Assembly: GCA_027623675.1 (NCBI GenBank)
Contig: JAQBVF010000026.1
Location: 1 to 51,617 of the forward strand
Origin: Chloroflexota bacterium
GTDB lineage: Bacteria > Chloroflexota > Dehalococcoidia > Lucifugimonadales > UBA3495
DNA length: 51,617 nucleotides
Direction of reading: 5' to 3'
Shown: in pieces, positions 16,672-51,491 of the stretch
Position numbering within the stretch: position 1 is the stretch's first letter
Layout of the letters: the number at the start of each line of letters is the position of its first letter
Made by a program: the position numbers and the translations under genes
The notes under the pieces: generated by a model
The model's input: the letters and a program-made list of their open reading frames with translations, nothing else
Database searches by the model: none
What the model was told of the DNA's origin: nothing

Positions 16672-17823
<1,152 letters not shown>

Positions 17824-33823: not shown

Positions 33824-34975
33824 TCAGGCTGCCAACTCCGCCAGACGCTTGATCCCTTCCAGATTCAGGACCATGTTGCCCCGGTGTTGTTCCAAGCGGT
33901 TGGCGAGGATCTGGTGGGCTTGGCTGGGATGACCCTCCATCGCCCTGCCGGTGGCCGATAGGCTTGGCCCGATGACCAACCGCTGGCGCAGCCTTGTGCC
34001 GCCGGGGAGACGTTCGAGCTCGAACCGCCACTGGGCGCTGGGTCTTTCCCGGTCGTTCACGTGCCACGCGAAAACGTGGGGCGGGTCGCAGGCGACGACC
34101 CATGAGGTCGTCTCCCATTGCCGGTCCACGTCCCGACGATCGTTCCGGCCAATGAATGAAGCGCCTTCTTCCGGACCGTCGGCATCGATCCAGTCCGCGC
34201 CTCGAAACTCATTGCTGAACCGGGCTGAGATATTGATGTCACTTGCCAAGTCCCAGACGCGCTCCGGCGGCGCCGCGATGTCGATCTCCACGGTGACCCC
34301 TGGCCCGGCGGCGATCAGATCTTCGGTTTCGCCAGGGCGTTCTTTGGTGTGCCCCCAGCGGTCGAACCAGGTGATCTCCGATGCCGGCCGGCGCGATGCG
34401 GGTTTGAAATCGGCGCCGATCGTCCATGCCACGGGGAGCAGAACCACCTGAGTTACGCCGTCAGGGACCCCCAGAACCTTGGCAAACTCCTGGGATCTCC
34501 CCAGGTGTAGAGTCGTCCAGGCTGAACCTAGGCCCCGCGCACGAAGGGCGAGACAGAAGCTCCATGCGGCCTGCACCACCGAGTCGAATAGGCCGGGGCG
34601 GCCACTGCCGTCGTGCACCCCCAACACCGTGGCCAGAACCAGCACGGGGACCCGCTCCAGATTGGCGGCCAGGTGTGCCGCGGAATCCAAGACCCGCTCC
34701 TTGGGATGACCGGTCCCTCTCAGTTCTTCGGCCGATTCCATGATCTCGTTTCCGCCGGCAGCGCGGTACAGGTCAGCCAGTTGGGACTTGATCTCGGGAT
34801 CGCGGACCACCAGCCAACGGCGGCTGGAGATATCTCCTCCCGAGGGGGCCTGCTCCGCCAGGTCGATACAGCGCAGCAAAAGTTCATCGGGCACGTCCCG
34901 TTCGAGGTCGAGCCGGCGGCGCACGGCCCGTGTTGTACTGAGAAGGGCATCGGCTTGGTCTATGTCAAAGTCCAT
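33824..34975 (-). CDS. nitroreductase - SRPBCC fusion protein
   Basis: LLSTTRAVRRRLD, QAPSG, LRARGLGSAWTTLH, followed by a IDIAAPPERVW...W SRPBCC domain. Confidence 0.85.
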   Translation of the reverse strand: MDFDIDQADALLSTTRAVRRRLDLERDVPDELLLRCIDLAEQAPSGGDISSRRWLVVRDPEIKSQLADLYRAAGGNEIMESAEELRGTGHPKERVLDSAAHLAANLERVPVLVLATVLGVHDGSGRPGLFDSVVQAAWSFCLALRARGLGSAWTTLHLGRSQEFAKVLGVPDGVTQVVLLPVAWTIGADFKPASRRPASEITWFDRWGHTKERPGETEDLIAAGPGVTVEIDIAAPPERVWDLASDINISARFSNEFRGADWIDADGPEEGASFIGRNDRRDVDRQWETTSWVVACDPPHVFAWHVNDRERPSAQWRFELERLPGGTRLRQRLVIGPSLSATGRAMEGHPSQAHQILANRLEQHRGNMVLNLEGIKRLAELAA

Positions 34976-35586
34976 GGCTCACCTCGTTCGAGCAAGAAAT
35001 GGAAGCTCTTCCCTGAATCGCAACCTGAAGCTTGAGGGCCGGTCTTCTTTGCCGGTTTTCTTTGCCGGTTTTCTTCAGCGGCAGCGATTCAACAAACGGG
35101 GCAACACTATAACAGGTCGGGAACATCGTTTCGCCGCAAACCACCTCGCCGCACCATATTCCCATCGCGCTTGCCGCTCAAGTTTCTCATTGTTGTTGGG
35201 CCAGGTTGCCGGGTCTGCCCAGGCGCTCTGGAAGCTGGAATACAGCATCAGGGAACGCAAATACTCGGTCCGGTATCAGAAGTCCGCTCCCACGGCGGCA
35301 GCCTCCGCCGGAGACTAGCGTGCCCGCTGGTCGTTCCTGCCGTCCCCTTAACCCAGACCAAGCACCGCTGGAAAGACCCGGAACGGCACTCTACCCCGGG
35401 GAGCAACCTTCTCGAACGGCCGATCGCCGCTCAGACGACCCCCAGCCGTCATCCGGCAGTCCGTTGGCCCGGACGTGGGAAGCGTGGCCAAAACCAGGGG
35501 CAAATCATCGCTGCTAAACCAGCGCTACCAAGAAATAGTATGATGGGCCGGTTACCATGATCAGATGCAGATGAAGGAGCGTTGCC

Positions 35587-36651
35587 ATGGATGTTGGATT
35601 GATGATGATCTTCTCGAGCTACGGTTGGGAGGAAGGTTCTGACGGCCAGATGTGGGAGGAGGAGCTGCGCCTGGCCGAGATTGCGGCAGATGAGGGGTTC
35701 GATTGCCTTTGGTCCGCGGAGCATCACTTCAACGATTACTCCTTCGTCCCGGACAATATCCAATTGATGACCCACCTCGCGGCCAAGTATCCGGACATCG
35801 ATGTGGGAACGGCAGCGGTGATTCTGCCCTGGCATGACCCGCTGCGAGTCGCGGAGAGCGCCGCCGTGCTCGACATGTTGAGCAATGGCCGGCTCCGGCT
35901 TGGTTTCGGGCGCGGTCTTGCCCGGCGTGAGTTCGAAACCTTCGGAATCAACATGGACGAATCCCGGGAACGCTTCGACGAGGCGGCTCCGATGATCGTC
36001 GAGGCCCTCAAGACCGGGTACATCGAGGGCAACGGCGCCCACTACAAGCAGCTCCGCACGGAGATACGCCCCCGGCCGCAGCATTCTTTCGACGGCCGCA
36101 TCTACGCCGTCGCATCCAGCGAAGAGTCTGTCGTCTCCGCCGCCAAGCTTGGCGCGCATGTCGTGATGTTCGCGGACCGGCCCTGGGAGATGCGGCTGCC
36201 GACCATCGAGCGTGCCCGCGCCCTGCACCGGGAATTTCACGATACCGAAGCGCCGGATGTGATGCTGACCGAGTTTGTCATCTGCGGCCCCGACCTGGCG
36301 CAGTGCCAGGAGGACGCCCGCCAGTATCAGGGCAAATTCGTTGAGAGCAACTTCTATCACTATGAATTTCTGGGCGACCATTTCAGGTCGGTGAAGGGCT
36401 ACGATTCCTATCAGCAGAAGGCTGAGATCGCTCGTTCCGGAGGACTCGAGGGAGCGGTCGACGGCTTCATGGAGGCGGCTAGCTGGGGCACGCCGGACAA
36501 GATCCTGCGGGGCCTGGAGGAACGCCGGAACCTGATCGGCAACTTTGAGTGGAACGTGTCCTTCCGGTTTGGCGGCACGCCCTATGATGTTGCGGAACGG
36601 GGGCTGAAGCTCTTCGCCAAAGAGGTGCTGCCGGTCCTGAAATCCTGGTAG
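35587..36651 (+). CDS. LLM class flavin-dependent oxidoreductase
   Basis: WSAEHHF, ILPWHDPLRVAE...LD.LSNGRLRLGFGRG. Confidence 0.92.
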   Translation: MDVGLMMIFSSYGWEEGSDGQMWEEELRLAEIAADEGFDCLWSAEHHFNDYSFVPDNIQLMTHLAAKYPDIDVGTAAVILPWHDPLRVAESAAVLDMLSNGRLRLGFGRGLARREFETFGINMDESRERFDEAAPMIVEALKTGYIEGNGAHYKQLRTEIRPRPQHSFDGRIYAVASSEESVVSAAKLGAHVVMFADRPWEMRLPTIERARALHREFHDTEAPDVMLTEFVICGPDLAQCQEDARQYQGKFVESNFYHYEFLGDHFRSVKGYDSYQQKAEIARSGGLEGAVDGFMEAASWGTPDKILRGLEERRNLIGNFEWNVSFRFGGTPYDVAERGLKLFAKEVLPVLKSW

Positions 36652-36676
36652 GGCGCCGCCGAATAAAGACCGGATC

Positions 36677-36718
36677 AAGACCGGCCCCGGCTGACGATCA
36701 GCCTTGGCCGGTCTTTTT
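36677..36718 (+). terminator. intrinsic terminator after the LLM gene
   Basis: AAGACCGGCC..GGCTGA-CGA-TCAGCC..GGCCGGTCTT-TTT. Confidence 0.75.
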
Positions 36719-36890
36719 CGCTTACGCCGCTATATCCTTGGCCGGCGGCTGGTTCACCGAACAACCCAAGGACTTCAGGTCTGGTCTGCGCGATCTCCGA
36801 CGCTCCCCCAACCGTATCTCGCACTTTGTTACCGCACCGGTAGGATTGCTGCAGCGCCCCTTACCTATCTTGAATAGGTACCGGTTTCAC

Positions 36891-36966
36891 GTAACAAATT
36901 AGTTACAACTAGGACATATTCAGGTAACATGGTTGGCTCATAATCTGGCCATAACTTAGTTGTTAT
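36891..36966 (+). promoter_or_regulatory. AT-rich promoter/operator region with RTAAC-N6-GTTAY palindromes
   Basis: GTAAC-AAATTA-GTTAC (36891-36906), half-site GTAAC (36924), CATAAT (36939-36944), ATAAC-TTAGTT-GTTAT (36951-36966). Confidence 0.55.
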
Positions 36967-37033
36967 TTCGGGAGCCGCCGTTTGCTGAGTTCCCGTTGCT
37001 TTCCCTTGCCGCCTGATCTGAACGGAGATTGAA

Positions 37034-38749
37034 TTGCCCATATCTTTGCCCTGGTCCAACAAACTCGCGGGCGCACAGCGTGGAGAAGACCGGCTTGATT
37101 CCGGTCTCAACGGCCTAGATCAGCGCGACCATCCCGGGTCCGCGGTCCGCATCTTGCAAGACGGCGGACAAGCCCAACCGATACTTTCACTGCGCGGAAT
37201 AACCAAGCGATTCCAAGACCTGGTCGCCAACGACAACATCGACCTGGACATCTACGGCGGTGAGGTCCACGCGGTCTTGGGCGAGAACGGCGCCGGCAAG
37301 AGCACGTTGATGAAGGTCATCTACGGTGTTCATCAGCCCGACGGCGGTGAGATCAGGTTCAACGGCGAAGACGCCCATATCCGGTCCCCTCGAGACAGCC
37401 GGGACTTGGGGATCGGCATGGTATTCCAGAATTTCGCCCTGATTCCTGCCCTGACGGTAACGGAAAATGTTGCTCTCTTCCTCCCGGACCAAGGGTTGGT
37501 TCTGAGTAGACCGGACCTGGTCCGGCGGATCCGGCAGGTATCCGATAGATATAACCTGCACGTGAGTCCTTCGGCACGGATAAGCGACCTCTCCATGGGC
37601 GAGCGCCAGAAAGTAGAGCTGATCAAGCTGATCATGGCCCATGCTCAAGTCTTGATACTGGATGAGCCTACCAGCGTTCTCGCCCCCCACGAAGTCGATG
37701 GCCTGTTCGAGGTCTTCGATGAACTCAGACGGGACGGTTATGCCATCGTCTTCATCACCCACAAGATTCGGGAAGTGCTGTCGTCCGCCGATCGCATCAC
37801 CGTTCTCCGGCGCGGAGCGGTGGTGACCAACCGGTCCAGCCAGGGCATCACGGGTGACGACTTAGTTTCCCTGATGATGGGGATAGATATCGTGGAAGTG
37901 CCCCCTAGAGCCCACATTCAGAGTCATATCGCATACGATTCGAAGAAACTGGCTTATCAGAGGGACGCCAGGCACTTCGGCAGTGTGGCGGCCATCGAGT
38001 TCAAAGACGTTTCGACCAGCGAGGCCGATGACCCTCGAGGCCTGCACGGCGTGAGTTTCAGCGTCATGCCGGGGCAGATGCTGGGAGTCGCGGGCATCTC
38101 GGGCAACGGCCAGCAAGAGTTGGGCGAAACTCTGATGGGGATGGTCAAGAACACCGGCGGGACCATCTCCATAGGCGGAGACGACGTGAAGGGTTGGCCG
38201 GTTTCCAAGATCCTTGAAGCCGGCGTCAGTTACGTAACCGAGGACCCCATCACCATGGCGATGGTGCCGGAGATGCGGGTGGACGAGAACCTGGTGCTGG
38301 GGGAACTCGCCAGTTACAGCAACGGCAGGGTCTGGCTCGATATCGGCGCGATCCGCGAGAAGATCGCCGCCGCGCTGAGCGGATTCCCTCTGCAGTTGGC
38401 CGCGCATGACATGCAGGTAGCCAAATTGTCCGGCGGGAATGTGCAAAAGGTGAGCCTGGCCCGGGAGATGGAACTGACTCGCCAGGCGGCCAGCGACCCC
38501 AAGGTCTTGATGGCCTATTACCCCACTCGAGGATTGGACGTGGTAACCGCCGAAACCACCCGCCGCCTGATGATGGATTACCGGGACCGGGGCGGGGCCA
38601 TCGTTCTGGTGTCGGAAGACCTGGACGAGTTGCTGGCGCTCAGTGACCACATGGTGGTGATGTTCCAAGGCAACATAGTTGGCGCATTCCCCACCGAAGC
38701 TGCCTCGGTCCAAGAGATCGGGATGCTGATGACAGGGCAGAACGCATAG
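37034..38749 (+). CDS. ABC transporter ATP-binding protein, tandem NBD (CUT2/nucleoside type)
   Basis: GENGAGKST, LILDEPT, degenerate second Walker A GISGNGQ, LSGGN.QK, PTRGLD; start uncertain. Confidence 0.92.
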   Translation: MPISLPWSNKLAGAQRGEDRLDSGLNGLDQRDHPGSAVRILQDGGQAQPILSLRGITKRFQDLVANDNIDLDIYGGEVHAVLGENGAGKSTLMKVIYGVHQPDGGEIRFNGEDAHIRSPRDSRDLGIGMVFQNFALIPALTVTENVALFLPDQGLVLSRPDLVRRIRQVSDRYNLHVSPSARISDLSMGERQKVELIKLIMAHAQVLILDEPTSVLAPHEVDGLFEVFDELRRDGYAIVFITHKIREVLSSADRITVLRRGAVVTNRSSQGITGDDLVSLMMGIDIVEVPPRAHIQSHIAYDSKKLAYQRDARHFGSVAAIEFKDVSTSEADDPRGLHGVSFSVMPGQMLGVAGISGNGQQELGETLMGMVKNTGGTISIGGDDVKGWPVSKILEAGVSYVTEDPITMAMVPEMRVDENLVLGELASYSNGRVWLDIGAIREKIAAALSGFPLQLAAHDMQVAKLSGGNVQKVSLAREMELTRQAASDPKVLMAYYPTRGLDVVTAETTRRLMMDYRDRGGAIVLVSEDLDELLALSDHMVVMFQGNIVGAFPTEAASVQEIGMLMTGQNA

Positions 38750-38752
38750 CCC

Positions 38753-39811
38753 ATGCAGTACCCAATCTCGATGCAACAGGCCCAGGGGTTCGCGATCAAC
38801 TTGACCGGCCGTCCGATCGTTAGGTCTCTTTTTGCCATAGTCTTCGCGTTTGTGGTCTTCGCCATATTCATCGTGATCATCGGACGCGACCCGGTGGAAA
38901 TCTATACCAAGATGTTCAGCGGCACTCTGGGAAGCAAAGTGGGCCTGAGTGAAGTCGGCGTAAGGATGATTCCTTTCGTTCTAACTGCCTTGGCCGCTTC
39001 GATACCGGCCCGGGTCGGCCTCATCAACGTTGGAGGCGAGGGCCAGTTGTATATCGGGGCTTGGGCCGCGACCGGAGTGGCGCTGTACATCGACTTCGGG
39101 ACGATCTGGCTGATGCTGCCCGCCATGGCTGTCGGCGGATTCTTGGGCGGCGCGATATGGGGTGGCATCGCTATCTTTCTGCGGCATTGGCGTAACGTGA
39201 ACGAAGTCATCTCAACCCTGCTTTCCAACTATGTGGCGATCCTTTTCGTCAACGTGTTCGTCTTTGGCGCCTGGAAGAACCCCACCGGGTTCGGGTATCC
39301 CTACACCTCGAACTTCGGAGTTGAAGCGATCCTGCCAGCCATCGCCAGCACCCGGCTGCACCTGGGATTGGTCCTGCCCGTGATCGGAATCATTGCCACC
39401 TATCTGTTCCTTAGCCGTACCCGGTGGGGCGCCAACATGCGCGCCGTGGGCGGCAACCCGGACGCGGCCCGCAGACGGGGCATACCCGTGCTGCGTTATA
39501 TCATCTTCGCCATGTTGGTCGGCGGGGGGCTAGCCGGCCTTGCCGGCATGAGCGAGGTGTCGGGGATCCAACATCACCTTCGCCCCGGAATATCCAACAA
39601 CCTCGGCTACATGGGATTCCTGGCCAGTTGGATGGCTAACCATAATCCCATCGCCATCGTCGGGACCAGCTTCCTCGTGGCGGCCATCGTCGTAGGGGGA
39701 GACGTTCTCCAATTCAGCGGCAACCTGCCTTCCGCGGCCATGTTGATCCTGATCGGACTTGTGCTTTTCTCCGTTCTAGGGTTCCGGCGGTTGGAGAGTA
39801 AAGCGCAATGA
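38753..39811 (+). CDS. ABC transporter permease
   Basis: GLINVGGEGQ, NEVISTLL.NY, RAVG.N..AA. Confidence 0.92.
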   Translation: MQYPISMQQAQGFAINLTGRPIVRSLFAIVFAFVVFAIFIVIIGRDPVEIYTKMFSGTLGSKVGLSEVGVRMIPFVLTALAASIPARVGLINVGGEGQLYIGAWAATGVALYIDFGTIWLMLPAMAVGGFLGGAIWGGIAIFLRHWRNVNEVISTLLSNYVAILFVNVFVFGAWKNPTGFGYPYTSNFGVEAILPAIASTRLHLGLVLPVIGIIATYLFLSRTRWGANMRAVGGNPDAARRRGIPVLRYIIFAMLVGGGLAGLAGMSEVSGIQHHLRPGISNNLGYMGFLASWMANHNPIAIVGTSFLVAAIVVGGDVLQFSGNLPSAAMLILIGLVLFSVLGFRRLESKAQ

Positions 39812-40731
39812 CCGATGTATGGCTGGTCCTTGGCGGAACATTGACCGGAGCGGTGGGCCCTGGCATCTCGGTGTTGTACGCCACCTACGGAGAGTTGATC
39901 ACCGAAAGGGCCGGCAGGATCAACCTGGGAACGGAAGGTTCCATGCTGATGGGGGCCTGCTTCGGCTTCATCGCCACCGTTGAAACGGGCTCGGCTACCG
40001 TCGGTGTTCTGGCGGGCATGGTCGCCGGCAGCGGGTTGAGCCTGGTCTTGGCCTACCTCGTTATATTCCGGGACACCAACCAACTGGCCACGGGGTTCGC
40101 GTTAACGCTTTTCGGCGCCGGGATCACAGCGTACGCCGGGCGGGGCTATGTGGACAGCACGATCGGCGGATTGAACCCGGTAGCCATTCCGCTGCTATCC
40201 GAGATACCCGAACTCGGCCAAGCCCTCTTCCAACAGGACATCTTGGCCTACATAGCCTATCTGCTGGGCCCGTTGCTATTCATCGGCTTGCATTACACCC
40301 GCACCGGCCTGAGCCTTAAAGCGGTGGGTGAAAGCATCGACGTCGCCTTCGCCGCCGGAAGAAATCCCCGCCTGATCCAGATCGCGGCCATCGCGGCCGG
40401 CGGAGCACTGGCCGGGCTGGGCGGCGCCCAGCTTTCTTTGGGGCTGACCCATACCTGGTCTGAAGGAATGACCGTGGGCCGCGGCTTTGTCGCCGTTGGG
40501 TTGGTGATCTTTGCGATGTGGTCTCCCCTGAGGGCGATGGTCGGCGCGTTCTTGTTTGGCGGGGCCATTGGCCTTCAATTACAACTTCAAACCGTCGGCG
40601 CGCCGGTGTCGCCGTTCATTTTGGATATGCTCCCGTACCTGATAATTCTGCTGGTCATGGCCCTTTGGAGCCGGGCGTCGGCCCGGGCGATGCCAGAAGG
40701 ACTGAAAGGAGTTCTGAAGGCCACAACGTGA
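39808..40731 (+). CDS. ABC transporter permease
   Basis: GE.ITERAG.INLG.EG.ML, GRGFVAV, MLPY. Confidence 0.92.
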   Translation: MTDVWLVLGGTLTGAVGPGISVLYATYGELITERAGRINLGTEGSMLMGACFGFIATVETGSATVGVLAGMVAGSGLSLVLAYLVIFRDTNQLATGFALTLFGAGITAYAGRGYVDSTIGGLNPVAIPLLSEIPELGQALFQQDILAYIAYLLGPLLFIGLHYTRTGLSLKAVGESIDVAFAAGRNPRLIQIAAIAAGGALAGLGGAQLSLGLTHTWSEGMTVGRGFVAVGLVIFAMWSPLRAMVGAFLFGGAIGLQLQLQTVGAPVSPFILDMLPYLIILLVMALWSRASARAMPEGLKGVLKATT

Positions 40732-40875
40732 CCAGATCTAGATTGATGACCATATGGAGAGCAAAGTGACAGGCGGGCCATCTGTGTGGCCGTTCCAGGA
40801 ATAGATCCGGCTTGATCAAGCGCCTCATACGCTCTAAGCCGCCAAAAAGCACCAAAATTCTTAGGAGGAAACGGT

Positions 40876-42201
40876 TTGTACAACAGGATCAGGAATCTTT
40901 CATTATTCACGCGGTCCCACCGGGTATTGGTCGGGGCATTAATGCTGATGGCCCTGGTGGCATTGGCGGCTTGCGGGAGTGACGACCCCACCGCCGCTCC
41001 GGCCCAGCCCACCGCGACCCAGGCCAGCGCCAATCCTGGGGCGCCCGCGGCCACCGGCGTCACGGCAACCAACCCCACGATTGATGACCTGGCCGGAGGC
41101 TCTCCCGAGGTTTTCTTAAAGGGATTCAAGGACGCCGTGGCCGGTAGCGAATTCCGATCCACCTCTGAATTCGCCGCCGCTGCCAAGCCTTTGGCCGCCG
41201 GTGAAAAACTGAAGGTTGGATTCATCTTTGTCGGCTCCCAGAAGGACCTGGGCTACAACCAAGCAGCCGCGGAGGGCAGCCAATATCTCGAGCGGGCTTT
41301 CGACGACATCGAAGTCCTGCGATCGGAGAACATACCTGAAACTGCCGACGTGCAGGCGGTTGAAGAACAGATGATCCGCGACGGCGCCAAGATCATCTTC
41401 GCCACCAGCTACGGATACTCCGGCCCCACCAAAGCGATCATCAACAAGTATCCGGACGTCATGTTCCTGCATATGGGCGATGTTGAGAGCTTCGAGAATT
41501 ACTCGTCGTTCTTTGGTAATATCTGGCAATTGGAGTACGCTGCGGGACAGGTTGCCGGCAGCACATCCAAGACCGGAAAGCTGGGGTTCATAGCGGCGTT
41601 CCCCATCCCGCAGACTTTGCTGAACGTGAACGCGTTCCACTTGGGAGCGCAGTCGGTTAACCCAGATGTCGAGACCACTTTCGTCTTGACCAGCAGTTGG
41701 TGCGACCCCGCGAAACAGGCAACCGCGGTACAAGCGATGGTTGATGCCGGCGTGGACGTGCTGACCCAGCACCAGGACTGCACCAAGACCATCGTTGAAG
41801 CCGCGGAACGGGCCGGGATCTACGTTTCCGGTTACCACCAAGACGCCAGCCCGGCCGCTCCCAACGCCTGGTTGACCGGCGCCGCTTGGAACTGGGGCCC
41901 GGTCTACACTGAGATCGTTGGGGAGATCAGGCAGGGCACCTTCAAGAGCTCGGTAATGTTCCAGGGTCTGGACGCCGGCTGGGTGCGTTTGTCGCCCTTC
42001 GGCGATTTCCTTCCCGACGATGTAAAGCAGCAAGCTTTGGATACGGTAGAGGCGTTGAGGACCGGGAATTTCCAGCCTTTCACCGGGCCGATCCTAGATC
42101 AAGACGGCGTGGTCCAGATCGCCGCTGGAGTGGTCCCAACCGATGCTGATCTGCAGAGCACCGGTTACCTGCTGCAAGGCATAACCGGCAGGACTAACTA
42201 G
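40876..42201 (+). CDS. BMP family ABC substrate-binding lipoprotein
   Basis: AGGAGG RBS plus TTG; lipobox LAAC; KVGFIFVG...DLGYNQ, IFATSYGY, NAF.LGA. Confidence 0.9.
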   Translation: MYNRIRNLSLFTRSHRVLVGALMLMALVALAACGSDDPTAAPAQPTATQASANPGAPAATGVTATNPTIDDLAGGSPEVFLKGFKDAVAGSEFRSTSEFAAAAKPLAAGEKLKVGFIFVGSQKDLGYNQAAAEGSQYLERAFDDIEVLRSENIPETADVQAVEEQMIRDGAKIIFATSYGYSGPTKAIINKYPDVMFLHMGDVESFENYSSFFGNIWQLEYAAGQVAGSTSKTGKLGFIAAFPIPQTLLNVNAFHLGAQSVNPDVETTFVLTSSWCDPAKQATAVQAMVDAGVDVLTQHQDCTKTIVEAAERAGIYVSGYHQDASPAAPNAWLTGAAWNWGPVYTEIVGEIRQGTFKSSVMFQGLDAGWVRLSPFGDFLPDDVKQQALDTVEALRTGNFQPFTGPILDQDGVVQIAAGVVPTDADLQSTGYLLQGITGRTN

Positions 42202-42288
42202 CCCTTCTGGCATAATCACGACTTGGCAGGCGATCTTTGGGACAAGCCCGGTAGCGCCGGGCTTGTCTTACTCTTTGAGGAGTTCATA

Positions 42289-42975
42289 ATGGCCAACACA
42301 GTCTCCGCCGACCCCTATGAATGGCCCTACGACGGCGAGATAGATCCGAGGCGTACAGCTCTGCTCCTCATCGATTGGCAGCATGATTTTTGCGGTCCGG
42401 GCGGCTACGTAGACACCATGGGCTACGACATCTCGTTGACCAGACGGGGAGTGGAGCCGACACGTAACGTTCTCGAATCTTGCCGCCGGATCCCTGGGTT
42501 CACCATCGTGCACACCCGCGAGGGGCACAAGCCTGACCTTTCAGACTGCCCACCCAACAAGCTCTGGCGGTCCCGCCGGATGGGCGCCGGAATCGGCGAC
42601 GCGGGACCCTGCGGCCGCATCCTCGTCCGGGGTGAGCCCGGATGGGAGATCATTGACGAGCTGGCGCCCCTCGAGGGGGAGCCGGTGATCGACAAACCAA
42701 CCAAGGGCGCCTTCACCGCCACGGACCTGGACTTGGTTCTAAAGAACCGCGGGGTCACCCACCTGGTGTTCACTGGCATCACCACCGACGTATGCGTGCA
42801 TACGACCATGCGCGAAGCCAACGACCGTGGCTACGAATGCCTGTTGCTGGAAGACTGCACCGGAGCGACGGAAGAAGGAAACTATCTGGCCGCCCTGAAC
42901 ATGATTAAGATGCAGGGCGGAGTGTTCGGCGCGGTGTCAAATTCCAACGATTTCATAAACGCGATCAGCCCATGA
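42289..42975 (+). CDS. biuH: biuret hydrolase (isochorismatase-like cysteine hydrolase)
   Basis: Closely matches BiuH as recalled: ADPY.WPY, ID.Q.DFCG.GGYVD.MGYD, HTREGH, DKP.KG.F, GITTDVCV, KMQGGVFG (D-K-C triad plus F/K/Q biuret-binding residues). Confidence 0.85.
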   Translation: MANTVSADPYEWPYDGEIDPRRTALLLIDWQHDFCGPGGYVDTMGYDISLTRRGVEPTRNVLESCRRIPGFTIVHTREGHKPDLSDCPPNKLWRSRRMGAGIGDAGPCGRILVRGEPGWEIIDELAPLEGEPVIDKPTKGAFTATDLDLVLKNRGVTHLVFTGITTDVCVHTTMREANDRGYECLLLEDCTGATEEGNYLAALNMIKMQGGVFGAVSNSNDFINAISP

Positions 42976-42991
42976 TTCAGGGTGGAGGCCC

Positions 42992-44500
42992 ATGGATACC
43001 CGAACCAGCTTTCGAAACGCAGTCCAAGACGCCCGATCGTTCAATACCGACAAGGTAGACCGGCGGCCTGGATTCATCTCCAGTGTTGCCCGAATGGGCA
43101 AGACACAGAAACGCGACGTCCGCGCCCTGCCTCCGATGACCGCTCAGGCCCGGCGAGGGCCGGTAGCGGTTGCGGCGGGCCTCATGGCAGAGGGCGGCAC
43201 CTCCGCCGTTGAGCAAGTGAAACGCGCTCTAGAGGTAATCAACCGGCTGCAGCCGAAACTGAATGCCTTCGCTCACATCGCTCCCGAGTCCGAATCGATG
43301 GCGATAGCCGAGGCTTTGGACCTGGAACGGGCCGGCGGCAAGATCAGAGGTCCGCTCCACGGCCTGCCGATCTCGGTAAAAGACGTGATTCACGTTAAGG
43401 GCATGCCCACCAGCTCCGGTTCCAAGGTGATGGAAGGCTTCATGCCCGACGATGACGCCACCGCGGTGCGGCTGCTGCGGGAAGCCGGCGCGATCATCAT
43501 GGGCAAGGCCCATACCCACGAATTCGCCCTTGGGGTGACCACCCCGCAGAGCAGGAACCCTTGGGATACCAGCCGCGATCCGGGCGGGTCGAGCGGCGGG
43601 TCGGCGATCACGGTGTCCACCGGCATGAGCCTGTTGAGTGTTGGCACCGATACCAGGGCGTCGATCAGGGTCCCAGCCTCTTTGTGCGGCACCCTTGGCT
43701 ACAAACCCACCTACGGGCTAGTCTCCACCGACGGCATCGTCACCCTTTCTTGGAGCATGGACCACACCGGCCTGATGGGACGCACCAGTGAAGACGTGGC
43801 GATCATGATGAACATAATCCAAGGGGTCGACCCCAAGGACTCGGGGACCCTAGATCTTCCCGCCGATGACTACACCGGATACCTTTTCAAGGACGTAACC
43901 GGACTCAGAGTTGGGCTGTCCGTCGAGGCCCTTGAAGGCGCAGATCCGGAGACATTGCGGACGTTCAATGCAGCAGTGGAGATATTCAAGTCGCTGGGCG
44001 TTGAGATTGTCGAGACCAAACTGCCTTCCGCAGACGACTTTCGGCTGGCCAACAACTTGGGGCTGATCATCAGCAGGACCGAGGCAGCGGCGTATCAGCG
44101 GGCCTTCCCCGATGCCGGCCCCAAGTACATCAAACAGGTGTTTGAACAATTGGACGAGGCGTCGAAAGTCACGGCGGTCGACTACATCACCGCCCAGCGG
44201 TTCCGGTCGGAATTTCAAGAACGCATGCTGGCCGAGCTGGAGGGGTTCGACGCATTCATCATGCCAACCACTCTGGTGCCGGCGGTCAAGGCCGAAGACA
44301 CCGAGCAGTACCTGACCATCCTTTCCAGGAATTGCATCCCTTGGAGCATGATCGGTTTCCCCACTTTGTCGGTGCCCGCCGGCCTGACAACGGGCGGTCT
44401 CCCGGTGGGCGCTCAATTGGTGGCCGCTCCGTTCGACGACGGCATCATATTGGCCCTGGCTTCGGCGTTGGAATCCGCCACGGAAGACCTGAGACCCTAA
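42992..44500 (+). CDS. amidase signature family enzyme
   Basis: GPLHG.P.SVKD, GK..THEFA, PGGSSGGS, GTDTRASIR.PA. Confidence 0.9.
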   Translation: MDTRTSFRNAVQDARSFNTDKVDRRPGFISSVARMGKTQKRDVRALPPMTAQARRGPVAVAAGLMAEGGTSAVEQVKRALEVINRLQPKLNAFAHIAPESESMAIAEALDLERAGGKIRGPLHGLPISVKDVIHVKGMPTSSGSKVMEGFMPDDDATAVRLLREAGAIIMGKAHTHEFALGVTTPQSRNPWDTSRDPGGSSGGSAITVSTGMSLLSVGTDTRASIRVPASLCGTLGYKPTYGLVSTDGIVTLSWSMDHTGLMGRTSEDVAIMMNIIQGVDPKDSGTLDLPADDYTGYLFKDVTGLRVGLSVEALEGADPETLRTFNAAVEIFKSLGVEIVETKLPSADDFRLANNLGLIISRTEAAAYQRAFPDAGPKYIKQVFEQLDEASKVTAVDYITAQRFRSEFQERMLAELEGFDAFIMPTTLVPAVKAEDTEQYLTILSRNCIPWSMIGFPTLSVPAGLTTGGLPVGAQLVAAPFDDGIILALASALESATEDLRP

Positions 44501-44510
44501 AGTGGGCACC

Positions 44511-45497
44511 ATGCCGTTTTCGGGACCGTTGGTTGATAGGACATCAAAGTCCGTGGCTCCGCGCCCCACGGTGAAGCTTATCGGCACCAAGGCGTACCGT
44601 TACCTGAGTGCGCCGGGGTTCTCTGGCGAGGTGATCTCCGCTGGAACCAGAGCGGTGTATATCGCCACCAGTAACGGGGACATCCTGGCTGCCTGCCGGC
44701 CGGACCAGCAACCTCACCCCAGGTCGTTCCTAACCGACCTTGACCTCTCCGGATTCCGCGCCGGTCTGCACATGTGGGTGGAGGGAGCCGAACTCAGGTG
44801 CGGCAACGGTGTCTGCTTCGACCTCACAGATGCACAGGTATGGAGCAGGCGGACGCCAGATTACTCTGCCGCCGTTACCATCCAGCAGTTGGGCCTGCGC
44901 TGCGAGGAATCGCTTCGGGCGGCAATCAAACTTTACCAAGGCGATAATCTTGGGCTAGCTCTCCCTTTCCTCGACACAGGGGCCAATGCCGATAGCTCGG
45001 CTCTTCTGCCGGATATCCCATCACCGTTGATCGCCGCCGGGGTTGAGCAGATCGAAAGAATGCTGCCCTTCTGCAGGTCCGGAAACCTCGGGGCCGTGCT
45101 GGAAATGGCCGACCGGATGATCGGGCTTGGCCCGGGACTAACCCCATCGGGCGACGATTTTGTGGGCGGCCTGGTGTTCATGGCCCTGCATCTGACTTCG
45201 GCCTATCCGGTGGAGCAGTGGTGGGAAGGCGGCGACATTCCGGCGCTGCTGCAACGCTCGGAGGGCATGACTTCGCAGATAAGCCGTGCCCTGCTCACCG
45301 ACCTGTCCGAAGGCCAAAGCCACGCTTCGCTCCACGACCTGGCTGATAGCCTGCTGTCCGACGCGGAGGGTTTCGACGCTGAAACCCATGTGAGCCGTGT
45401 CAGCAAGATTGGCCATAGCTCGGGTTGGGATATGTTGACCGGGATGCTAGCCGGACTGCTGCCCGTGATGCACCGGTCTCGGGCTTCTAGGAGTTGA
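44511..45497 (+). CDS. DUF2877 / AllH (YlbF)-like oxamate carbamoyltransferase subunit
   Basis: IGLGPGLTPSGDDF..G and IGHSSG.D.L.G motifs. Confidence 0.85.
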   Translation: MPFSGPLVDRTSKSVAPRPTVKLIGTKAYRYLSAPGFSGEVISAGTRAVYIATSNGDILAACRPDQQPHPRSFLTDLDLSGFRAGLHMWVEGAELRCGNGVCFDLTDAQVWSRRTPDYSAAVTIQQLGLRCEESLRAAIKLYQGDNLGLALPFLDTGANADSSALLPDIPSPLIAAGVEQIERMLPFCRSGNLGAVLEMADRMIGLGPGLTPSGDDFVGGLVFMALHLTSAYPVEQWWEGGDIPALLQRSEGMTSQISRALLTDLSEGQSHASLHDLADSLLSDAEGFDAETHVSRVSKIGHSSGWDMLTGMLAGLLPVMHRSRASRS

Positions 45498-46759
45498 ACA
45501 CCATCAACGTCAAGGACATCAAGGAAAAGATAGCGGCGGCCAACAGAGAAGCATTCGACCGAATAGTTTCCGCCGACCCGGTCCTGGTGGACATTCTGCC
45601 GGCGGGTGACGTTATCCCGGGCTTGGAAGACCGAATGGTCCTGCACTCGGGCCCGCCCGTTGACTGGCAGCATATGTGCGGGGCGCAAAAGGGCGCGGTC
45701 ATCGCGATGACCATCTTTGAGGGTTGGGCCAGCGACATTCCGAGCTCCGAAGAACTGCTCAGCAGCGGCGGCATCCGCTTCGACCCGAACCACCACCATG
45801 ACGCGGTAGGGCCCATGGCCGGTACAATCTCCAGGTCCCTGCCGGTCTACGTGGTGGAGAACCGCGCCCGGGGGAACCGGGCGTATTGCCGGTTGGTCGA
45901 GGACGAGCAGCAATTCGGGAACCACAGCGCCAAGTCCATCGACGGACTCCGGATGTGGCGCGACGTTTGGGCGCCGTCCTTGGGCCGGGGCGTTAGGCAC
46001 ATGGGCGGGTTGAGCCTAAAACCGATCATCGCCAAGGCCCTGCAGATGGGCGACGAACTTCACAACCGGCCCAACGCCGCCAGTTCCATGTTCGCTGGGG
46101 CCATGGCGGTCCCGATGATCGAGGCGGGAGTGCCCACTTCGGACCTGACCAGCACCCTCACCTATATATCCGGACACGAATTGCTCTTCCTGGGACTGGC
46201 CATGGCCTCCGCCAAGTCGGCGACCGACGCCGCCCGGGGTATCGAATTCTCCACCGTGGTGACTGCGATGGCGCGCAACGGCTACGAATTTGGCATCAAC
46301 GTGAGCGGACTGGACGGCGAGTGGTTCACCGCGCCCGCTCCGGCCATCGACGGATTGTATCTGCCGGGATACGGCGAGGGGGACGGCGGGTTCGATATGG
46401 GCGACTCGGCGATCACCGAGACGGTCGGCTGGGGCGGGTTCGCACTCGGCGGAGCGCCTAGCATCCTGTCTCTGGTCGGCGGCACCCCCGAAGAAGCCTT
46501 GAATTACAGCCGGGAGATGCGCGAGATCACGACCGGGCTCAGTCCTGATTTCGCCATTCCAGCCCTTGATTTTGAGGGCACCGCGGTTGGCATCGACATC
46601 CGCAAGGTGGCGCTAACGGGGATCTTGCCCATCATCGACACCGCGATCGCCCATAAGGAACCCGGCCACTCCATAATCGGGGCGGGCTTGGTCCGCCCTC
46701 CCATGGCCTGTTTCCACGGCGCACTCAGGGGATTCGCGGCCAAATACGGGTTGGGGTAG
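45494..46759 (+). CDS. DUF1116 / AllG (YlbE)-like oxamate carbamoyltransferase subunit
   Basis: LHSGPP, VGPMAG, ALQMGDELHNR, MARNG, DMGDSAITET.G.GG, GIDIRKV, P.IDT.IAHK. Confidence 0.9.
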   Translation: MNTINVKDIKEKIAAANREAFDRIVSADPVLVDILPAGDVIPGLEDRMVLHSGPPVDWQHMCGAQKGAVIAMTIFEGWASDIPSSEELLSSGGIRFDPNHHHDAVGPMAGTISRSLPVYVVENRARGNRAYCRLVEDEQQFGNHSAKSIDGLRMWRDVWAPSLGRGVRHMGGLSLKPIIAKALQMGDELHNRPNAASSMFAGAMAVPMIEAGVPTSDLTSTLTYISGHELLFLGLAMASAKSATDAARGIEFSTVVTAMARNGYEFGINVSGLDGEWFTAPAPAIDGLYLPGYGEGDGGFDMGDSAITETVGWGGFALGGAPSILSLVGGTPEEALNYSREMREITTGLSPDFAIPALDFEGTAVGIDIRKVALTGILPIIDTAIAHKEPGHSIIGAGLVRPPMACFHGALRGFAAKYGLG

Positions 46760-46770
46760 GTGGGCTGGCT

Positions 46771-48309
46771 ATGATTACAGAATCGGCGTTGTTGAAAAAC
46801 CGGTATTTCGACTCTGTGTTCTTGATGCGGGTGGCCAAGCGCCTCACCGAGCAGCCGGGAATAAATCAGGCGGCGTTGGTCATGGGGACGCCCAAGAACA
46901 TCCAGGTCTTGGCGGAAGCCGGATACCACAGGATCGATGGGCTGAATGCCTCCAGCAATGACCTGGTGATTTCACTGAGGGCAGACTCGGCCGAAACGGC
47001 CCGTCTGCTGATCGAAAACCTGGACGAATATCTGGCCAGGGACACTGGCAGGCCGGCCCCGCGGACCGTCCGCTCCACCGAACAGGCCTTGACCCAACAG
47101 CCAACGTCTAATATCGCGTTGGTTTCGGTGCCGGGGGAGTTCGCCGCCAGAGAAGCCAGGCAGGCGCTCCAGAGCGGACTAAACGTGTTTCTCTTCAGCG
47201 ACCACGTTTCCGTGGCCGACGAGCTATCGCTGAAGCGGTTGGCGTTGGAGAAGGGACTGCTGCTGATGGGCCCCGACTGCGGCACCAGCATCATCGGCGG
47301 AGTGGGCTTGGGCTTCGCCAATGCCGTCCGGCGAGGCGGAATCGGCGTTATCGGCGCCTCGGGCACTGGCACGCAAGAAGTCACATCGTTGGTCCACCGT
47401 TGGGGTTCTGGCATATCTCATGCCATCGGCGTCGGCGGCAGAGACCTGTCCGACGATATCGGAGCGATTTCGACACTACAGGCGTTGGACGCCCTGGAAA
47501 AAGACCCCGGCACCGACGTGATACTCCTAGTTTCCAAACCGCCTGGAACAGCGACGATCGCGCGAGTGAACGAACGAGTCGCGGCCTGCTCCAAGCCGGT
47601 GGTCACCTGTTATCTCGGCGGCCAGCAAGCGCTGTCGCTGCCTGCCGGGAACGTCACCACCACGCACAATCTTGACGACGCGGCCACGGCGGCCATCCGA
47701 TTGGGCGGAGGCATCCGGGTGGATGAAGCGCACTCGGTCACGCCGGAAACGCTAGAGCGCGAGTCCGGAAGACTTCGGGCCAGCCAGAGGTACGTGCGCG
47801 GCGTGTTCTCGGGCGGGACGCTATGCTACCAGGCCCAGCAGGCGCTCCGTGACGCCGGGCTCATGGTCCATTCCAATGAGCCATTGGAGAAGAGCCTGGC
47901 GCTGGCCGACTCTGCCTTGAGCGTGGAACACACTCTGGTGGACATGGGCGCCGACGAGTTCACGGAAGCAAAGCCCCATCCGATGGTCGACTCGACGCAG
48001 CGTATCCAACGGATATTGTCTGAGGCCGGTGACCCACAGGTAGCCGTGCTCCTATTGGATTGCGTCCTGGGCTATGTAGCCGCTGAAGATCCTGGTGGAG
48101 ACATCGCTCCGGCAATATCGGAGGCAAGACGGATAGCGAACCTGAGGAGCGACCATCTGTGCGTCGTCGCGTCCGTCTGCGGTACCGAACTCGATCACCA
48201 AGGACTGGCAGCCCAGGTCCGTTCACTGGAAGAAGCCGGCGCCATCGTGTTTACTTCGGCTTTCCAGGCGGCTCGGTTCGCCGCGCGGCTGGTTACGGAG
48301 AGGGGTTAA
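46771..48309 (+). CDS. fdrA: FdrA / AllF acyl-CoA synthetase-like protein
   Basis: YFDSV.LM, SVPG.FAA, FSD, MGPDCGT, ASGTG.QE, SKPP, GGTL, KPHPM.D. Confidence 0.92.
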   Translation: MITESALLKNRYFDSVFLMRVAKRLTEQPGINQAALVMGTPKNIQVLAEAGYHRIDGLNASSNDLVISLRADSAETARLLIENLDEYLARDTGRPAPRTVRSTEQALTQQPTSNIALVSVPGEFAAREARQALQSGLNVFLFSDHVSVADELSLKRLALEKGLLLMGPDCGTSIIGGVGLGFANAVRRGGIGVIGASGTGTQEVTSLVHRWGSGISHAIGVGGRDLSDDIGAISTLQALDALEKDPGTDVILLVSKPPGTATIARVNERVAACSKPVVTCYLGGQQALSLPAGNVTTTHNLDDAATAAIRLGGGIRVDEAHSVTPETLERESGRLRASQRYVRGVFSGGTLCYQAQQALRDAGLMVHSNEPLEKSLALADSALSVEHTLVDMGADEFTEAKPHPMVDSTQRIQRILSEAGDPQVAVLLLDCVLGYVAAEDPGGDIAPAISEARRIANLRSDHLCVVASVCGTELDHQGLAAQVRSLEEAGAIVFTSAFQAARFAARLVTERG

Positions 48310-48492
48310 ATGATGGAGCTAGAAACCGCGATCGACCGCCTATTGTCCGGCGGCGTTGCCGCGATCAATATCGGGGTTGAGGATTTTGCGGAGAACCTGG
48401 AGGTTCAGAGCGCGCCAGTGGTGCACGTGACGTGGACACCCCCCGCCGGCGGAGACCCTGAGATCATCGCGATCCTAGATCAGATCTTGTGA
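48310..48492 (+). CDS. small FdrA-associated domain protein
   Basis: INIGV..F...L..Q...VVHV.W.PPAGGD motif; abuts the fdrA stop. Confidence 0.8.
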   Translation: MMELETAIDRLLSGGVAAINIGVEDFAENLEVQSAPVVHVTWTPPAGGDPEIIAILDQIL

Positions 48493-48524
48493 TGGAATCC
48501 CTCAAAGCAGATTAGAGAGGGAGA

Positions 48525-48570
48525 TGGTGCCCCAGGTGGGATTCGAACCCACGACCCGCTGCTTAGAAGG
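48525..48570 (-). repeat. tRNA-Arg(TCT) 3' fragment, putative att site
   Basis: Minus strand CCTTCTAAGCAGCGGGTCGTGGGTTCGAATCCCACCTGGGGCACCA: anticodon loop, T arm, acceptor 3' strand and CCA, but no tRNA 5' half upstream. Confidence 0.88.
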
Positions 48571-48773
48571 TATTTCTGCAAATGCGAACTAGTCAACGGC
48601 TAGTTTCCGCACAACTAGATATCTGCGTGCGTTACGAATTAAATCAATTAGGCGCACATCAAAATCCAGATGATTAACTGATTGGCAGTCTGTTGCCATT
48701 TTAACTACAGTTTGCAGTGGTCAACACTTAAAACTGACCCTAAGCTCCCAGCGCACTGGGAGTAGCTGGTTCT

Positions 48774-49330
48774 TCAAGCCACCGTCAGTTTCTCGAAGTT
48801 CAGGTATCGGTCGATGAACCGGTCGATCCACGCGGCATCGGTGTTCGACTTAACTGCGGTTGCAACTTCCTCAAGGGTCCATGCGGCGAACGTATCGCTG
48901 TCCGAGAGGCACTCGGAATAATCTGCGACGGCTTCTGAGCAATGGGCATTATCCATCGGGTACAAGAACACGAAGAACCCATCGCCGAAGTGGTCTTGAT
49001 GCCGTGAATCCCGGCCAGCATATGGTCCCGCCATATCTGTTGGAGCGGTTGCCTCCTTAGGTCCAGAAGCCCCTCAGGCTTAAAGCAGCCCATTACCTGG
49101 GCAACCTCGTCGTATCTAGAACGGTGCCGAGCGGCTTTCCCAGCAAGGCTTTCGTGGTACTTGGCCTCGATACCGATGAATCCCTTTCTTCCCTGTTTGG
49201 TCTCATAGGTCACATATACGTCGAAGGCCGAGTTGTCACCCGTGTAGCGCGCATCCCCACGACCGGGTGAGTACTCGAAATCTATCGATGTAACGGCGTG
49301 CACCCGGCCAGATGAGATAGCCCTGAAGGT
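48774..49330 (-). pseudogene. PD-(D/E)XK nuclease (PGN_0703-like putative restriction endonuclease), 5'-truncated and frameshifted
   Basis: FEYSPGRG...TGD.SAFDV...IGIE.KYHE and Q.WRDH.LA in one frame; FVFLYP..N..C..A...Y continues in another frame after about 49000. Confidence 0.7.
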
Positions 49331-50801: not shown

Positions 50802-51491
50802 CCGATATTTCCCAGATCAAGCCGACTTTCCTGCATATAGCTCCCTCCGGGACGCCGTGAACTATAATCACGCGTTCCAATGAGGTCAACCGCCCTCCGA
50901 CTCGCTCTATTACCCCCTTCCCCCGGGGCAACCACTGTACTGCCAAGCGTAAAATCCCAAAACCGCTGGTCTACGCCCAAGGTTTTCCCTTGGGAATCCC
51001 TTTTGCCCTGGACAATCCCGTAACCGTCACCAATCCCGACGCTCTAAAGCAGACTAGCCAGGTGCTGGCCGCAGGCGACTGATCTGTTCCAGTATCCCGC
51101 CCAGCATTTCCCGGCTCACCAGCACTTCAGCTAGCTGGAATACCAACCTTCTGGCATGGCGTATCAACCGTCCTCCGGTTTTGATCATCCGGGTCTGGAG
51201 ACTGGTCAGCGACCAGTGCTTCATCGCCTCCGGTAGGGCCAGTCTCCGCATGAAGTTACCCAGGTTGTATGCCAGTACGAACAGGGCCAACCTCACCTGG
51301 TTGGCCACGGACTTGTGGCAGGAAAGCCGGGTCCAGTTCGGGGCGTATTTTCCCTCTTTGATCCATTGCTCCGCCGTGCCTCGGCCATTGTAAAAGCTGA
51401 CTATGCCTCTGGGAGGGTAGTTCAGGTTGGTGACGATGAAGCCCACCCTGGGAAACAGTTCTCCTTGGTGCCACTCCACCTTGGCCACCAA
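50802..51491 (-). mobile_element. IS1380-family remnant: 3' part of transposase (51054..51491) plus right end
   Basis: VAKVEWHQGELFPRVGFIVTNL, FYNGRGTAEQWIKEGK, ANQVRL.L..LAYNL.NF; putative terminal IR ATCTGGGAAATATCGG at 50802-50817. Confidence 0.85.
50861..50889 (-). promoter_or_regulatory. outward-facing promoter inside the IS1380 right end
   Basis: TTGACC-N17-TATAGT pointing at the 49500..50780 gene. Confidence 0.65.

Follow-up and report, generated by a model that had tools for sequence, protein, structure and literature searches.

A biuret hydrolase operon with an AllFGH-type module in a Chloroflexota genome: a candidate system for scavenging biuret-family ureides

We examined a 51,617-nucleotide contig of a Chloroflexota bacterium (JAQBVF010000026.1, here called the window, meaning the whole stretch of DNA that was analysed) in which a biuret hydrolase gene, biuH, shares one operon with genes for a BMP-type importer, an amidase, and the three subunits of an AllFGH-type complex. 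Mapping of open reading frames (ORFs) combined with Pfam and NCBIfam scans identified a run of ten co-oriented, closely packed genes at 37034-48492 on the plus strand. Intergenic gaps within the run are -4 to +21 bases, with the exception of 145 bases ahead of the BMP gene. An earlier sequence-only reading of this DNA had listed a BMP-type ATP-binding cassette (ABC) transporter, a BiuH-like enzyme, an amidase, DUF2877, DUF1116, FdrA and a small FdrA-associated protein, and all of these were recovered, co-oriented and tightly packed. That reading placed the start of the feature at 36891, but no start codon is possible until 143 bases further on, and the operon starts at 37034. Relatives align with 99-100% of the length called for the ABC ATPase ORF in the loci shown. 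The genes of the operon, and two further genes on the opposite strand that bear on its interpretation, are as follows.

37034-38749, plus strand: ABC transporter ATPase with two ABC domains (Pfam ABC_tran, two stretches)
38753-39811, plus strand: ABC permease 1 (Pfam BPD_transp_2)
39808-40731, plus strand: ABC permease 2 (Pfam BPD_transp_2)
40876-42201, plus strand: BMP/PnrA-type substrate-binding protein (Pfam Bmp, 154.8 bits)
42223-42975, plus strand: predicted biuret hydrolase BiuH, isochorismatase family (NF050097, 401.5 bits)
42992-44500, plus strand: GatA-like amidase-signature enzyme (Pfam Amidase, 325.9 bits)
44502-45497, plus strand: AllH (DUF2877) subunit (Pfam AllH, PF11392, 70.8 bits against a cut-off of 25)
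45494-46759, plus strand: AllG (DUF1116) subunit (Pfam AllG, PF06545, 230.6 bits against a cut-off of 27)
46771-48309, plus strand: AllF (FdrA) subunit without its tail (NF004760, 467.2 against a cut-off of 433)
48310-48492, plus strand: free-standing AllF tail protein of 60 amino acids (FdrA model positions 505-554 of 555)
32734-33735, minus strand: carbamate kinase (NF009007, 290.9 against a cut-off of 266)
31759-32670, minus strand: transcarbamylase paralog resembling aspartate transcarbamylase (ATCase) (Pfam OTCace_N and OTCace; TIGR00670, 248.5 against 236.95)

The BiuH protein exceeds the curated equivalog cut-off of NF050097 (370 bits), and its match to BiuH in the PDB (6xjm, E 1.5e-112) is far stronger than that to TrtA (6xix, E 1.9e-60). 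The text of PMC5806882 gives Asp36-Lys142-Cys175 as the catalytic triad of BiuH, with substrate contacts at Phe41, Lys145 and Gln215, and that of PMC7948467 gives five residues that discriminate TrtA (F35, N41, E160, Y187, I205) from BiuH (Y, Y, D, T, V). Mapped onto these named residues through an alignment with PDB 6azo, the window protein carries the triad (D51, K158, C191), the substrate contacts (F56, K161, Q231) and the BiuH state at each discriminating position (Y62, Y68, D189, T216, V234). All 13 residues checked, including the five that differ from TrtA, are of the BiuH type. The biuret-specific residues claimed for this protein are thus present in full, and the hydrolase is predicted to be a genuine BiuH that converts biuret to allophanate and NH3.

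The enzyme encoded directly after biuH falls under every NCBIfam cut-off. It scored 287 against GatA and 188 against the AtzF model TIGR02713 (cut-off 511), where the match stops at model position 413 of 563. Scores against the AtzE models TIGR02715 (257, cut-off 425.75) and NF006631 (265.6, cut-off 461) were also too low, the search not extending to an AtzG-like partner. AH_C, the C-terminal domain of AtzF, was found neither in this amidase nor anywhere else in its own genome, all amidase paralogs included. Among PDB structures, GatA was the best match (223 bits), followed by AtzE (182) and allophanate hydrolase (141). AtzF or AtzE proper was therefore rejected as its identity. We then scored 80 BiuH loci from species-representative genomes by tblastn, and found this amidase (≥40% identity) in 13, the AtzF C-domain in 37, both in none and neither in 30, many of the last ending at a contig boundary. 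Because the two are mutually exclusive at BiuH loci, the amidase appears to take the place of AtzF there, and probably hydrolyses allophanate.

The genes for AllH, AllG and AllF are adjacent, and all three products exceed their Pfam or NCBIfam family cut-offs. Most AllG copies in the phylum score about 280-343 bits with the Pfam model that gives the window copy 230.6. Identity to the E. coli subunits is 42% for AllG, 39% for AllF (over E. coli residues 4-493) and 24% for AllH, the last in the C-terminal part only. Orthology of the window AllG with that of E. coli is not supported, as the window copy sits in a separate clade (100/100) and the E. coli protein groups elsewhere. These comparisons point to an AllH-AllG-AllF set that is complete but deeply divergent.

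An in-frame TAA ends AllF, and the ORF for the 60-residue protein begins immediately after. Its alignment with residues 511-554 of E. coli AllF shows 45% identity. The small FdrA-associated protein of the sequence-only reading therefore does exist, but corresponds to the C-terminal ~50 residues of FdrA, split off as a protein of their own. Of 50 related (clade-A) loci, 48 encode AllF and the tail as two ORFs, and in 21 of these the tail is in another frame. In 12 of 12 clade-B-like loci the tail module forms the N-terminus of the AllG ORF, and in E. coli it forms the C-terminus of AllF. Examples are found at 48310-48492 in the window, at L123:13196-13345 (a tail of ~50 residues) and at L098:8680-8844. 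Since the position of the tail alternates between the AllF C-terminus and the AllG N-terminus, it most likely serves as an interface or bridging element between these two subunits.

The carbamate kinase gene lies about 3.3 kb upstream of the operon, at the distance previously noted, although on the minus strand and thus opposite to the operon. It is the sole carbamate kinase in the genome (the next-best match scores 22.6 bits) and is 38% identical to E. coli AllK. The subfamily cut-off of NF009007 is exceeded, and the score against the equivalog TIGR00746 (339) is under its cut-off of 358.25. In three close relatives (L171, L179, L183) the kinase gene is directly divergent from the ABC ATPase gene, and in six loci (L018, L190, L212, L224, L230, L242) it follows right after the tail gene, in the same orientation in L018, L190 and L242. 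The window kinase adjoins the transcarbamylase paralog instead.

This ATCase-like gene, directly downstream of the kinase, was unmentioned in the sequence-only reading. In an alignment with E. coli PyrB, it has S in place of K84, G in place of R167, D in place of R229 and P in place of Q231; Lys84, Arg167, Arg229 and Gln231 are presumably the aspartate-binding residues of PyrB. The carbamoyl phosphate motifs STRTR, HPTQ and HPxPR are kept. Orthologs at L018:13168-14232 and L242:4859-5806 also lack K84, R229 and Q231 and keep the carbamoyl phosphate motifs, and the paralog adjoins carbamate kinase in all three loci. We rejected a role as the housekeeping pyrB because the aspartate-site residues are lost and a separate pyrB (305.8 bits) lies on another contig; that copy retains R167, R229 and Q231, with a Lys in one of the two K83/K84 columns. 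Beside that pyrB is a match to the allantoinase model, with weak partial matches to the urea carboxylase model nearby; these neighbors look like pyrC-like (dihydroorotase) and carB-like genes. Loss of the aspartate site, retention of the carbamoyl phosphate motifs and constant proximity to the kinase together suggest that the paralog could be a transcarbamylase with a different, unassigned acceptor. As such, it may be another supplier of carbamoyl phosphate.

The assembly comprises 3.07 Mb in 48 contigs (91.4% complete, 5.7% contaminated), of which the window is contig 11, and the nearest named relatives of the window genes are Dehalococcoidia and SAR202-type Chloroflexota, which suggests Dehalococcoidia as the class of this marine-type genome. 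Family scans of the window detected no allantoinase, allantoate amidohydrolase or ureidoglycolate dehydrogenase, in agreement with the earlier reading, and neither allBCD nor atzF was found over curated cut-offs in the 91.4% complete genome. The best scores there were 261 against 358 for AllB, 268 against 598 for AllC and 209 against 496 for AllD, AllE being outside the search. AllD was likewise over cut-off in none of 14 BiuH/TrtA-bearing genomes searched. The window's own genome contains urease, no urea carboxylase, one BiuH-type gene and one AllG; its next isochorismatase-family match scores 76 bits, with none in the TrtA range. The operon is unattached to the allantoin pathway.

Locus counts were taken from tblastn tables; greedy ORF calling missed genes such as AllH in L018 and TrtA in L098. 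A homolog of the BMP binding protein lies beside BiuH in 53 of the 80 loci. In the Dehalococcoidia locus L018 the whole gene set of the window is present, with carbamate kinase and the ATCase-like gene next in line and every gene on one strand. L021 has amidase-AllG only, without AllH or AllF. Three loci of one layout come from Acidimicrobiia. L032 is complete and reads ABC-BMP-BiuH-AtzF-TrtA-AllH-AllF-AllG-ArcC, L042 has no ArcC in the stretch examined, and in L027 the contig ends at AllF.

A metagenome scan with the window AllG recovered 80 further loci, which we divided into group 1 (27 loci, 84-91% identical) and group 2 (53 loci, 60-77%). Group 1 repeats the window order, with BiuH and the amidase directly before AllH in 11 of 11 loci that could be evaluated upstream, but these loci are so closely related that they amount to about one event. 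In two group 2 loci (L212 and L224) BiuH follows the module in the order AllH-AllG-AllF-tail-ArcC-BiuH, and both proteins bear the full BiuH signature. Upstream, loci of this group usually encode a histidine kinase of the MASE1-GAF kind together with a LuxR-type regulator. The MASE1 kinase gene precedes the ABC genes in L192, L194, L204, L206, L208 and L224, and four of these six kinases have GAF domains; in the four loci where the next ORF was scanned, it encodes a LuxR-type response regulator. The window lacks a comparable pair in the vicinity. L224 also carries, after AllHGF-tail-ArcC-BiuH, CT_C_D and CT_A_B genes (urea-carboxylase-type carboxyltransferase, PxpB/PxpC-like) at 14329-17097, and no amidase was found in this 21-kb locus.

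Among 401 genomes of the phylum, AllG was found in 77 and BiuH/TrtA-family matches (E≤1e-60) in only 16. Of these 16 genomes, 14 also have AllG, and in nine the pair lies within 6.2 kb on one contig. Eight Chloroflexota genomes from five families (91-98% complete) contain an operon with allH, allF, a fused tail::allG, arcC and a TrtA-type hydrolase gene (L097-L104, e.g., L098:5971-13867 and L102:6562-14343). The order allH-allF-allG-arcC-hydrolase holds in seven of the eight; in L100 the hydrolase gene is upstream of allF, and arcC is downstream of allG on the side away from TrtA. At the five discriminating positions the hydrolase has F, N, E, Y and I throughout, as TrtA does, and its best PDB match is TrtA (281 bits, compared with 266 for BiuH). 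The next gene in annotated loci encodes a polytopic membrane protein of ~520-540 amino acids with 10-13 predicted helices, to which no Pfam or NCBIfam family could be assigned. In three of these loci a stand-alone AH_C protein of ~130 amino acids, with no amidase domain beside it, comes after the membrane protein. An AH_C match lies beside the TrtA operon in seven of the eight genomes, with none in G354, and a divergent PucR or GntR regulator was present in the annotated loci L098, L100, L102 and L104.

Searches of these eight genomes found no BiuH-type match and no full AtzF. In the published route, as described in the texts of PMC7948467 and PMC5806882, the TrtA product carboxybiuret decays to biuret, for which BiuH is then needed. 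The canonical triuret route therefore appears broken in these genomes unless another enzyme takes carboxybiuret, and the break falls where an AllFGH step would fit; the conserved neighbor is AllHFG. Carboxybiuret differs from oxalurate by one NH, and by analogy with the E. coli reaction the TrtA-linked AllHFG is likely to split it with phosphate to carbamoyl phosphate and allophanate.

An AllG tree (IQ-TREE) was built from 48 rows, consisting of 46 Chloroflexota and Acidimicrobiia sequences, the window and E. coli; L102 is absent as a row. The window groups with L021, L018 and L105 (support 100/100). A separate ten-row clade (90/85) unites nine rows that are TrtA-linked by tblastn, from both phyla, with L154, whose neighboring isochorismatase is neither of BiuH nor of TrtA type. 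This clade is sister (85/85) to a trio containing E. coli AllG. Linkage to BiuH or TrtA is present in two deep AllG clades. One genome, G267, has two AllG copies, one TrtA-linked and one E. coli-like. The Chloroflexota AllGs closest to that of E. coli (L143 and L157) have no allantoin genes among their neighbors, which offer no hint of a substrate.

Further groups in the tree are linked to xanthine-dehydrogenase-family hydroxylases and PF04199 cyclases. Most AllF/AllG pairs of the phylum (L124-L163) lie beside genes for a xanthine-dehydrogenase-family Mo hydroxylase, a PF04199 cyclase, an amidase, Amidohydro_1 and CoA-transferase III. When neighbors of 60 AllG loci were clustered, the commonest were the FAD (16), Mo (14) and FeS (11) subunits, an amidase (10), and cyclases (9 and 8). 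This neighborhood is a different, undescribed context for the family, and its frequency implies that AllG sits in several kinds of nitrogen-heterocycle clusters.

How the genes of the window might work together can be proposed from these data. The BMP-type ABC importer would bring in a biuret-family ureide, BiuH would convert biuret to allophanate and NH3, and the amidase would hydrolyze allophanate in AtzF's stead. AllHGF would use phosphate to cleave the terminal carbamoyl group from an N-acylurea of this family, in the way that its E. coli counterpart acts on oxalurate, and carbamate kinase would turn the resulting carbamoyl phosphate into ATP, NH3 and CO2. Hydrolytic and phosphorolytic branches would then run side by side. 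We judge the chances to be even that the AllHGF module works on a biuret-family ureide and is coupled to the BiuH operon, and similarly balanced that the whole forms one operon for scavenging such compounds. Support comes from the gene identities and close packing of the operon, the lack of allantoin-to-oxalurate enzymes over cut-off in its genome, the co-occurrence of AllG with the BiuH/TrtA family in the phylum, the interrupted triuret route of the TrtA genomes, the two AllG copies of G267, and the recurrence of several gene orders, at least four BiuH/TrtA-AllFGH-kinase arrangements and their distribution over two deep AllG clades. The orders are listed here.

Order 1, BiuH-amidase-AllH-AllG-AllF-tail: window, L018 and 11 of 11 evaluable close relatives
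Order 2, AllH-AllG-AllF-tail-ArcC-BiuH: L212 and L224
Order 3, AllH-AllF-tail::AllG-ArcC-TrtA: eight Chloroflexota genomes
Order 4, BiuH-AtzF-TrtA-AllH-AllF-AllG-ArcC: Acidimicrobiia L032

More broadly, and with slightly less confidence than an even chance would allow, AllFGH-type complexes may constitute a family of N-acylurea phosphorylases in which the window and TrtA-linked clades yield carbamoyl phosphate from triuret, carboxybiuret, biuret or allophanate, with the tail as a movable coupling element.

Several observations weigh against a coupling of AllHGF to BiuH. The amidase is probably an allophanate hydrolase, so AllHGF is not a simple replacement for AtzF; the idea that the complex acts instead of AtzF is weakened here, as the amidase stands where AtzF does (13 loci against 37, with both in none, n = 80). 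Each candidate reaction also has a drawback. Cleavage of allophanate to carbamate and carbamoyl phosphate, the version first put forward, would be redundant with the amidase, and cleavage of biuret to urea (for which urease is present) and carbamoyl phosphate would be redundant with BiuH. Cleavage of triuret to biuret and carbamoyl phosphate would give every enzyme a distinct role in a genome without TrtA, but would depend on triuret being imported. Allophanate can decay to urea, so urease is another sink. AllFGH genes occur in only 5 of the 80 BiuH loci. In group 2, BMP-ABC genes lead directly into AllH-AllG-AllF-tail, with no BiuH or amidase, in 18 of 18 loci evaluable upstream; of 19 evaluable downstream, ArcC follows in four, BiuH after ArcC in two (L212, L224) and the ATCase-like gene in one. 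The constant partner of the window AllHGF clade is thus the transporter, with BiuH added in some lineages, on either side, which weakens the case that AllHGF needs the product of BiuH. The ancestral substrate may have been imported directly, whether biuret, triuret, oxalurate or another compound. PucR-type purine-catabolism regulators flank five of the clustered AllG loci as well as L241, and would fit oxalurate as well as triuret. Enzyme assays of AllFGH are confined to E. coli, and related genomes are non-independent samples. The proposal that the complex phosphorolyzes a ureide other than oxalurate is thus favored by a cluster free of the allantoin pathway and by recurrent juxtaposition, but not by the absence of BiuH from group 2 or by the low count among BiuH loci.

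One alternative is that two separate pathways share the locus, and perhaps a transporter or regulon, with BiuH and the amidase hydrolyzing biuret while AllHGF and the kinase split imported oxalurate or some other N-acylurea that has no relation to biuret. This is the reading printed in the text of PMC12625717 for metagenome-assembled genomes (MAGs) of nitrifiers, where allFGHK is assigned to oxalurate, and the E. coli complex is characterized only with oxamate and oxalurate in the text of PMC11326118. The group 2 relatives with AllHGF and transporter alone and the PucR regulators beside several AllG loci agree with it, as does the self-sufficiency of BiuH and the amidase in 11 of 13 amidase-bearing loci, which carry no AllFGH genes. 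However, none of the 14 genomes searched has an oxalurate-forming enzyme over cut-off, and AllG accompanies the rare BiuH/TrtA family in 14 of 16 genomes. Juxtaposition in several gene orders and two AllG clades is likewise hard to reconcile with mere sharing of a locus, most of the nitrogen in triuret would be lost to those TrtA genomes that have neither BiuH nor a full AtzF, and the window AllG lies outside the clade of its E. coli counterpart, at 42% identity. We consider the two-pathway explanation rather unlikely.

It is still less probable that AllH-AllG-AllF performs some other reaction, resembling those of acyl-phosphate enzymes or CoA ligases, on the product of the amidase or of BiuH, while the kinase serves the ATCase-like enzyme. 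AllF does have succinyl-CoA-synthetase-type domains (Pfam), AllH resembles its E. coli counterpart only weakly, L021 keeps amidase-AllG without AllH and AllF, and the window kinase adjoins not AllHGF but the transcarbamylase paralog, which without an aspartate site could make carbamoyl phosphate. Against this, all three subunits exceed Pfam or NCBIfam cut-offs. The kinase comes directly after the tail gene in six loci and after AllG in seven of eight clade-B operons (next to AllG in L100), and many such kinase-linked loci have no transcarbamylase paralog. The in-frame TAA between AllF and the last 60 codons, together with the missing AllH and AllF of L021, might also be taken as a sign that AllF was broken by a nonsense mutation in a decaying module. 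We rejected AllF as a pseudogene, and decay is very improbable, because 48 of 50 related loci keep the split, the tail lying in another frame in 21 of these, the tail is fused to AllG in 12 of 12 others, and the genes are full length.

The remainder of the window holds genes unrelated to the operon. A promoter and terminator scan of 31000-49000 returned fewer sites than in shuffled sequence. Downstream of the tail gene, 48520-48600 resembles the 3' half of a tRNA; ARAGORN and Rfam (E≤1) reported nothing there, and we regard this stretch as a tRNA fragment. Behind it come a truncated ORF for a PD-(D/E)XK nuclease and then a DDE transposase fragment (48520-49303 and 51054-51491). Close relatives have a luciferase-like monooxygenase gene after the tail gene instead; in the window that gene and a nitroreductase-SRPBCC gene sit between the carbamate kinase and the operon. 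The region 3' of the tail gene thus resembles the edge of a rearrangement. Elsewhere, a second protein of the isochorismatase family, extended at its N-terminus, is encoded beside an NADH-pyrophosphatase-like NUDIX gene (8445-9416 and 9814-10734, both minus strand), and this pair probably serves NAD salvage, unrelated to the operon. Finally, a module of DUF1800, DUF1501 and an NHL-repeat propeller protein is present in two copies, with DUF1501 preceding DUF1800 in one (12939-16607) and coming after it in the other (27462-31105).

Known breakdown of biuret and triuret is purely hydrolytic. Both compounds are impurities of urea fertilizer, and biuret is also a product of s-triazine breakdown (texts of PMC7948467 and PMC12625717). 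If AllHGF indeed acts on such ureides, bacteria would gain ATP, through substrate-level phosphorylation, from compounds whose degradation has until now been regarded as exclusively hydrolytic, and this energy-conserving branch would alter models of biuret and triuret turnover and growth yield. The newly named AllFGH family would gain a second, perhaps broader, substrate range, and the occurrence of allFGHK beside biuH or trtA without allantoin genes in nitrifiers, Acidimicrobiia and Chloroflexota would be explained.

Pairs of a catabolic transcarbamylase and carbamate kinase are familiar from the arginine and agmatine deiminase routes, in which a ureido group is transferred to phosphate and then yields ATP. 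The window differs in having a three-subunit transferase of the AllFGH type, plus a paralog of the ornithine transcarbamylase (OTCase) fold. Closer to it is the E. coli AllFGH-AllK system, which comprises the same three families and a carbamate kinase, with a presumed shared course from N-acylurea phosphorolysis through carbamoyl phosphate to ATP; E. coli AllF-AllG-AllH interconverts oxamate plus carbamoyl phosphate and oxalurate plus Pi, according to the text of PMC11326118. Unlike the E. coli genes, those of the window run H-G-F rather than F-G-H, encode the AllF tail separately, belong to another deep AllG clade and have no allB, allC, allD or allE neighbors. They are embedded with biuH, the amidase gene and a BMP-ABC importer, and the kinase is 3.3 kb off on the other strand.

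The TrtA-(TrtB)-BiuH-AtzF pathway of Herbaspirillum and Rhizobium, as presented in the texts of PMC7948467 and PMC5806882, has a BiuH of the same equivalog family and an amidase-signature enzyme after biuH. Unlike that pathway, the window lacks TrtA and the AtzF C-terminal domain, has a GatA-like amidase, and adds AllHGF and a kinase. The nearest precedent is in ammonia-oxidizing archaea and comammox Nitrospira MAGs, where biuH, a gatA-like amidohydrolase gene, bmpA-nupABC and allFGHK occur on the same contigs (PMC12625717, mSystems 2025). According to the text of that study, the gatA-like enzyme is a suggested allophanate hydrolase and allFGHK a collocated oxalurate pathway. The same gene families are collocated in the window, likewise without upstream purine genes, but in a different phylum. 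The text and supplement 1 of PMC12625717, figures not covered, describe no TrtA-only operons, two AllG clades, migrating tail or transcarbamylase paralog, and a full-text literature search, again excluding figures, found no paper in which allophanate, biuret, triuret or carboxybiuret is proposed to undergo phosphorolysis. The view that the route was undescribed therefore holds for the phosphorolysis idea but not for the biuH-allFGH collocation, which is already published. With the collocation and the enzyme families known, the new elements here are the comparative argument that the genes form a single integrated pathway, the TrtA operons in genomes that have neither BiuH nor AtzF, the division into two AllG clades, the mobility of the AllF tail and the paralogous transcarbamylase.

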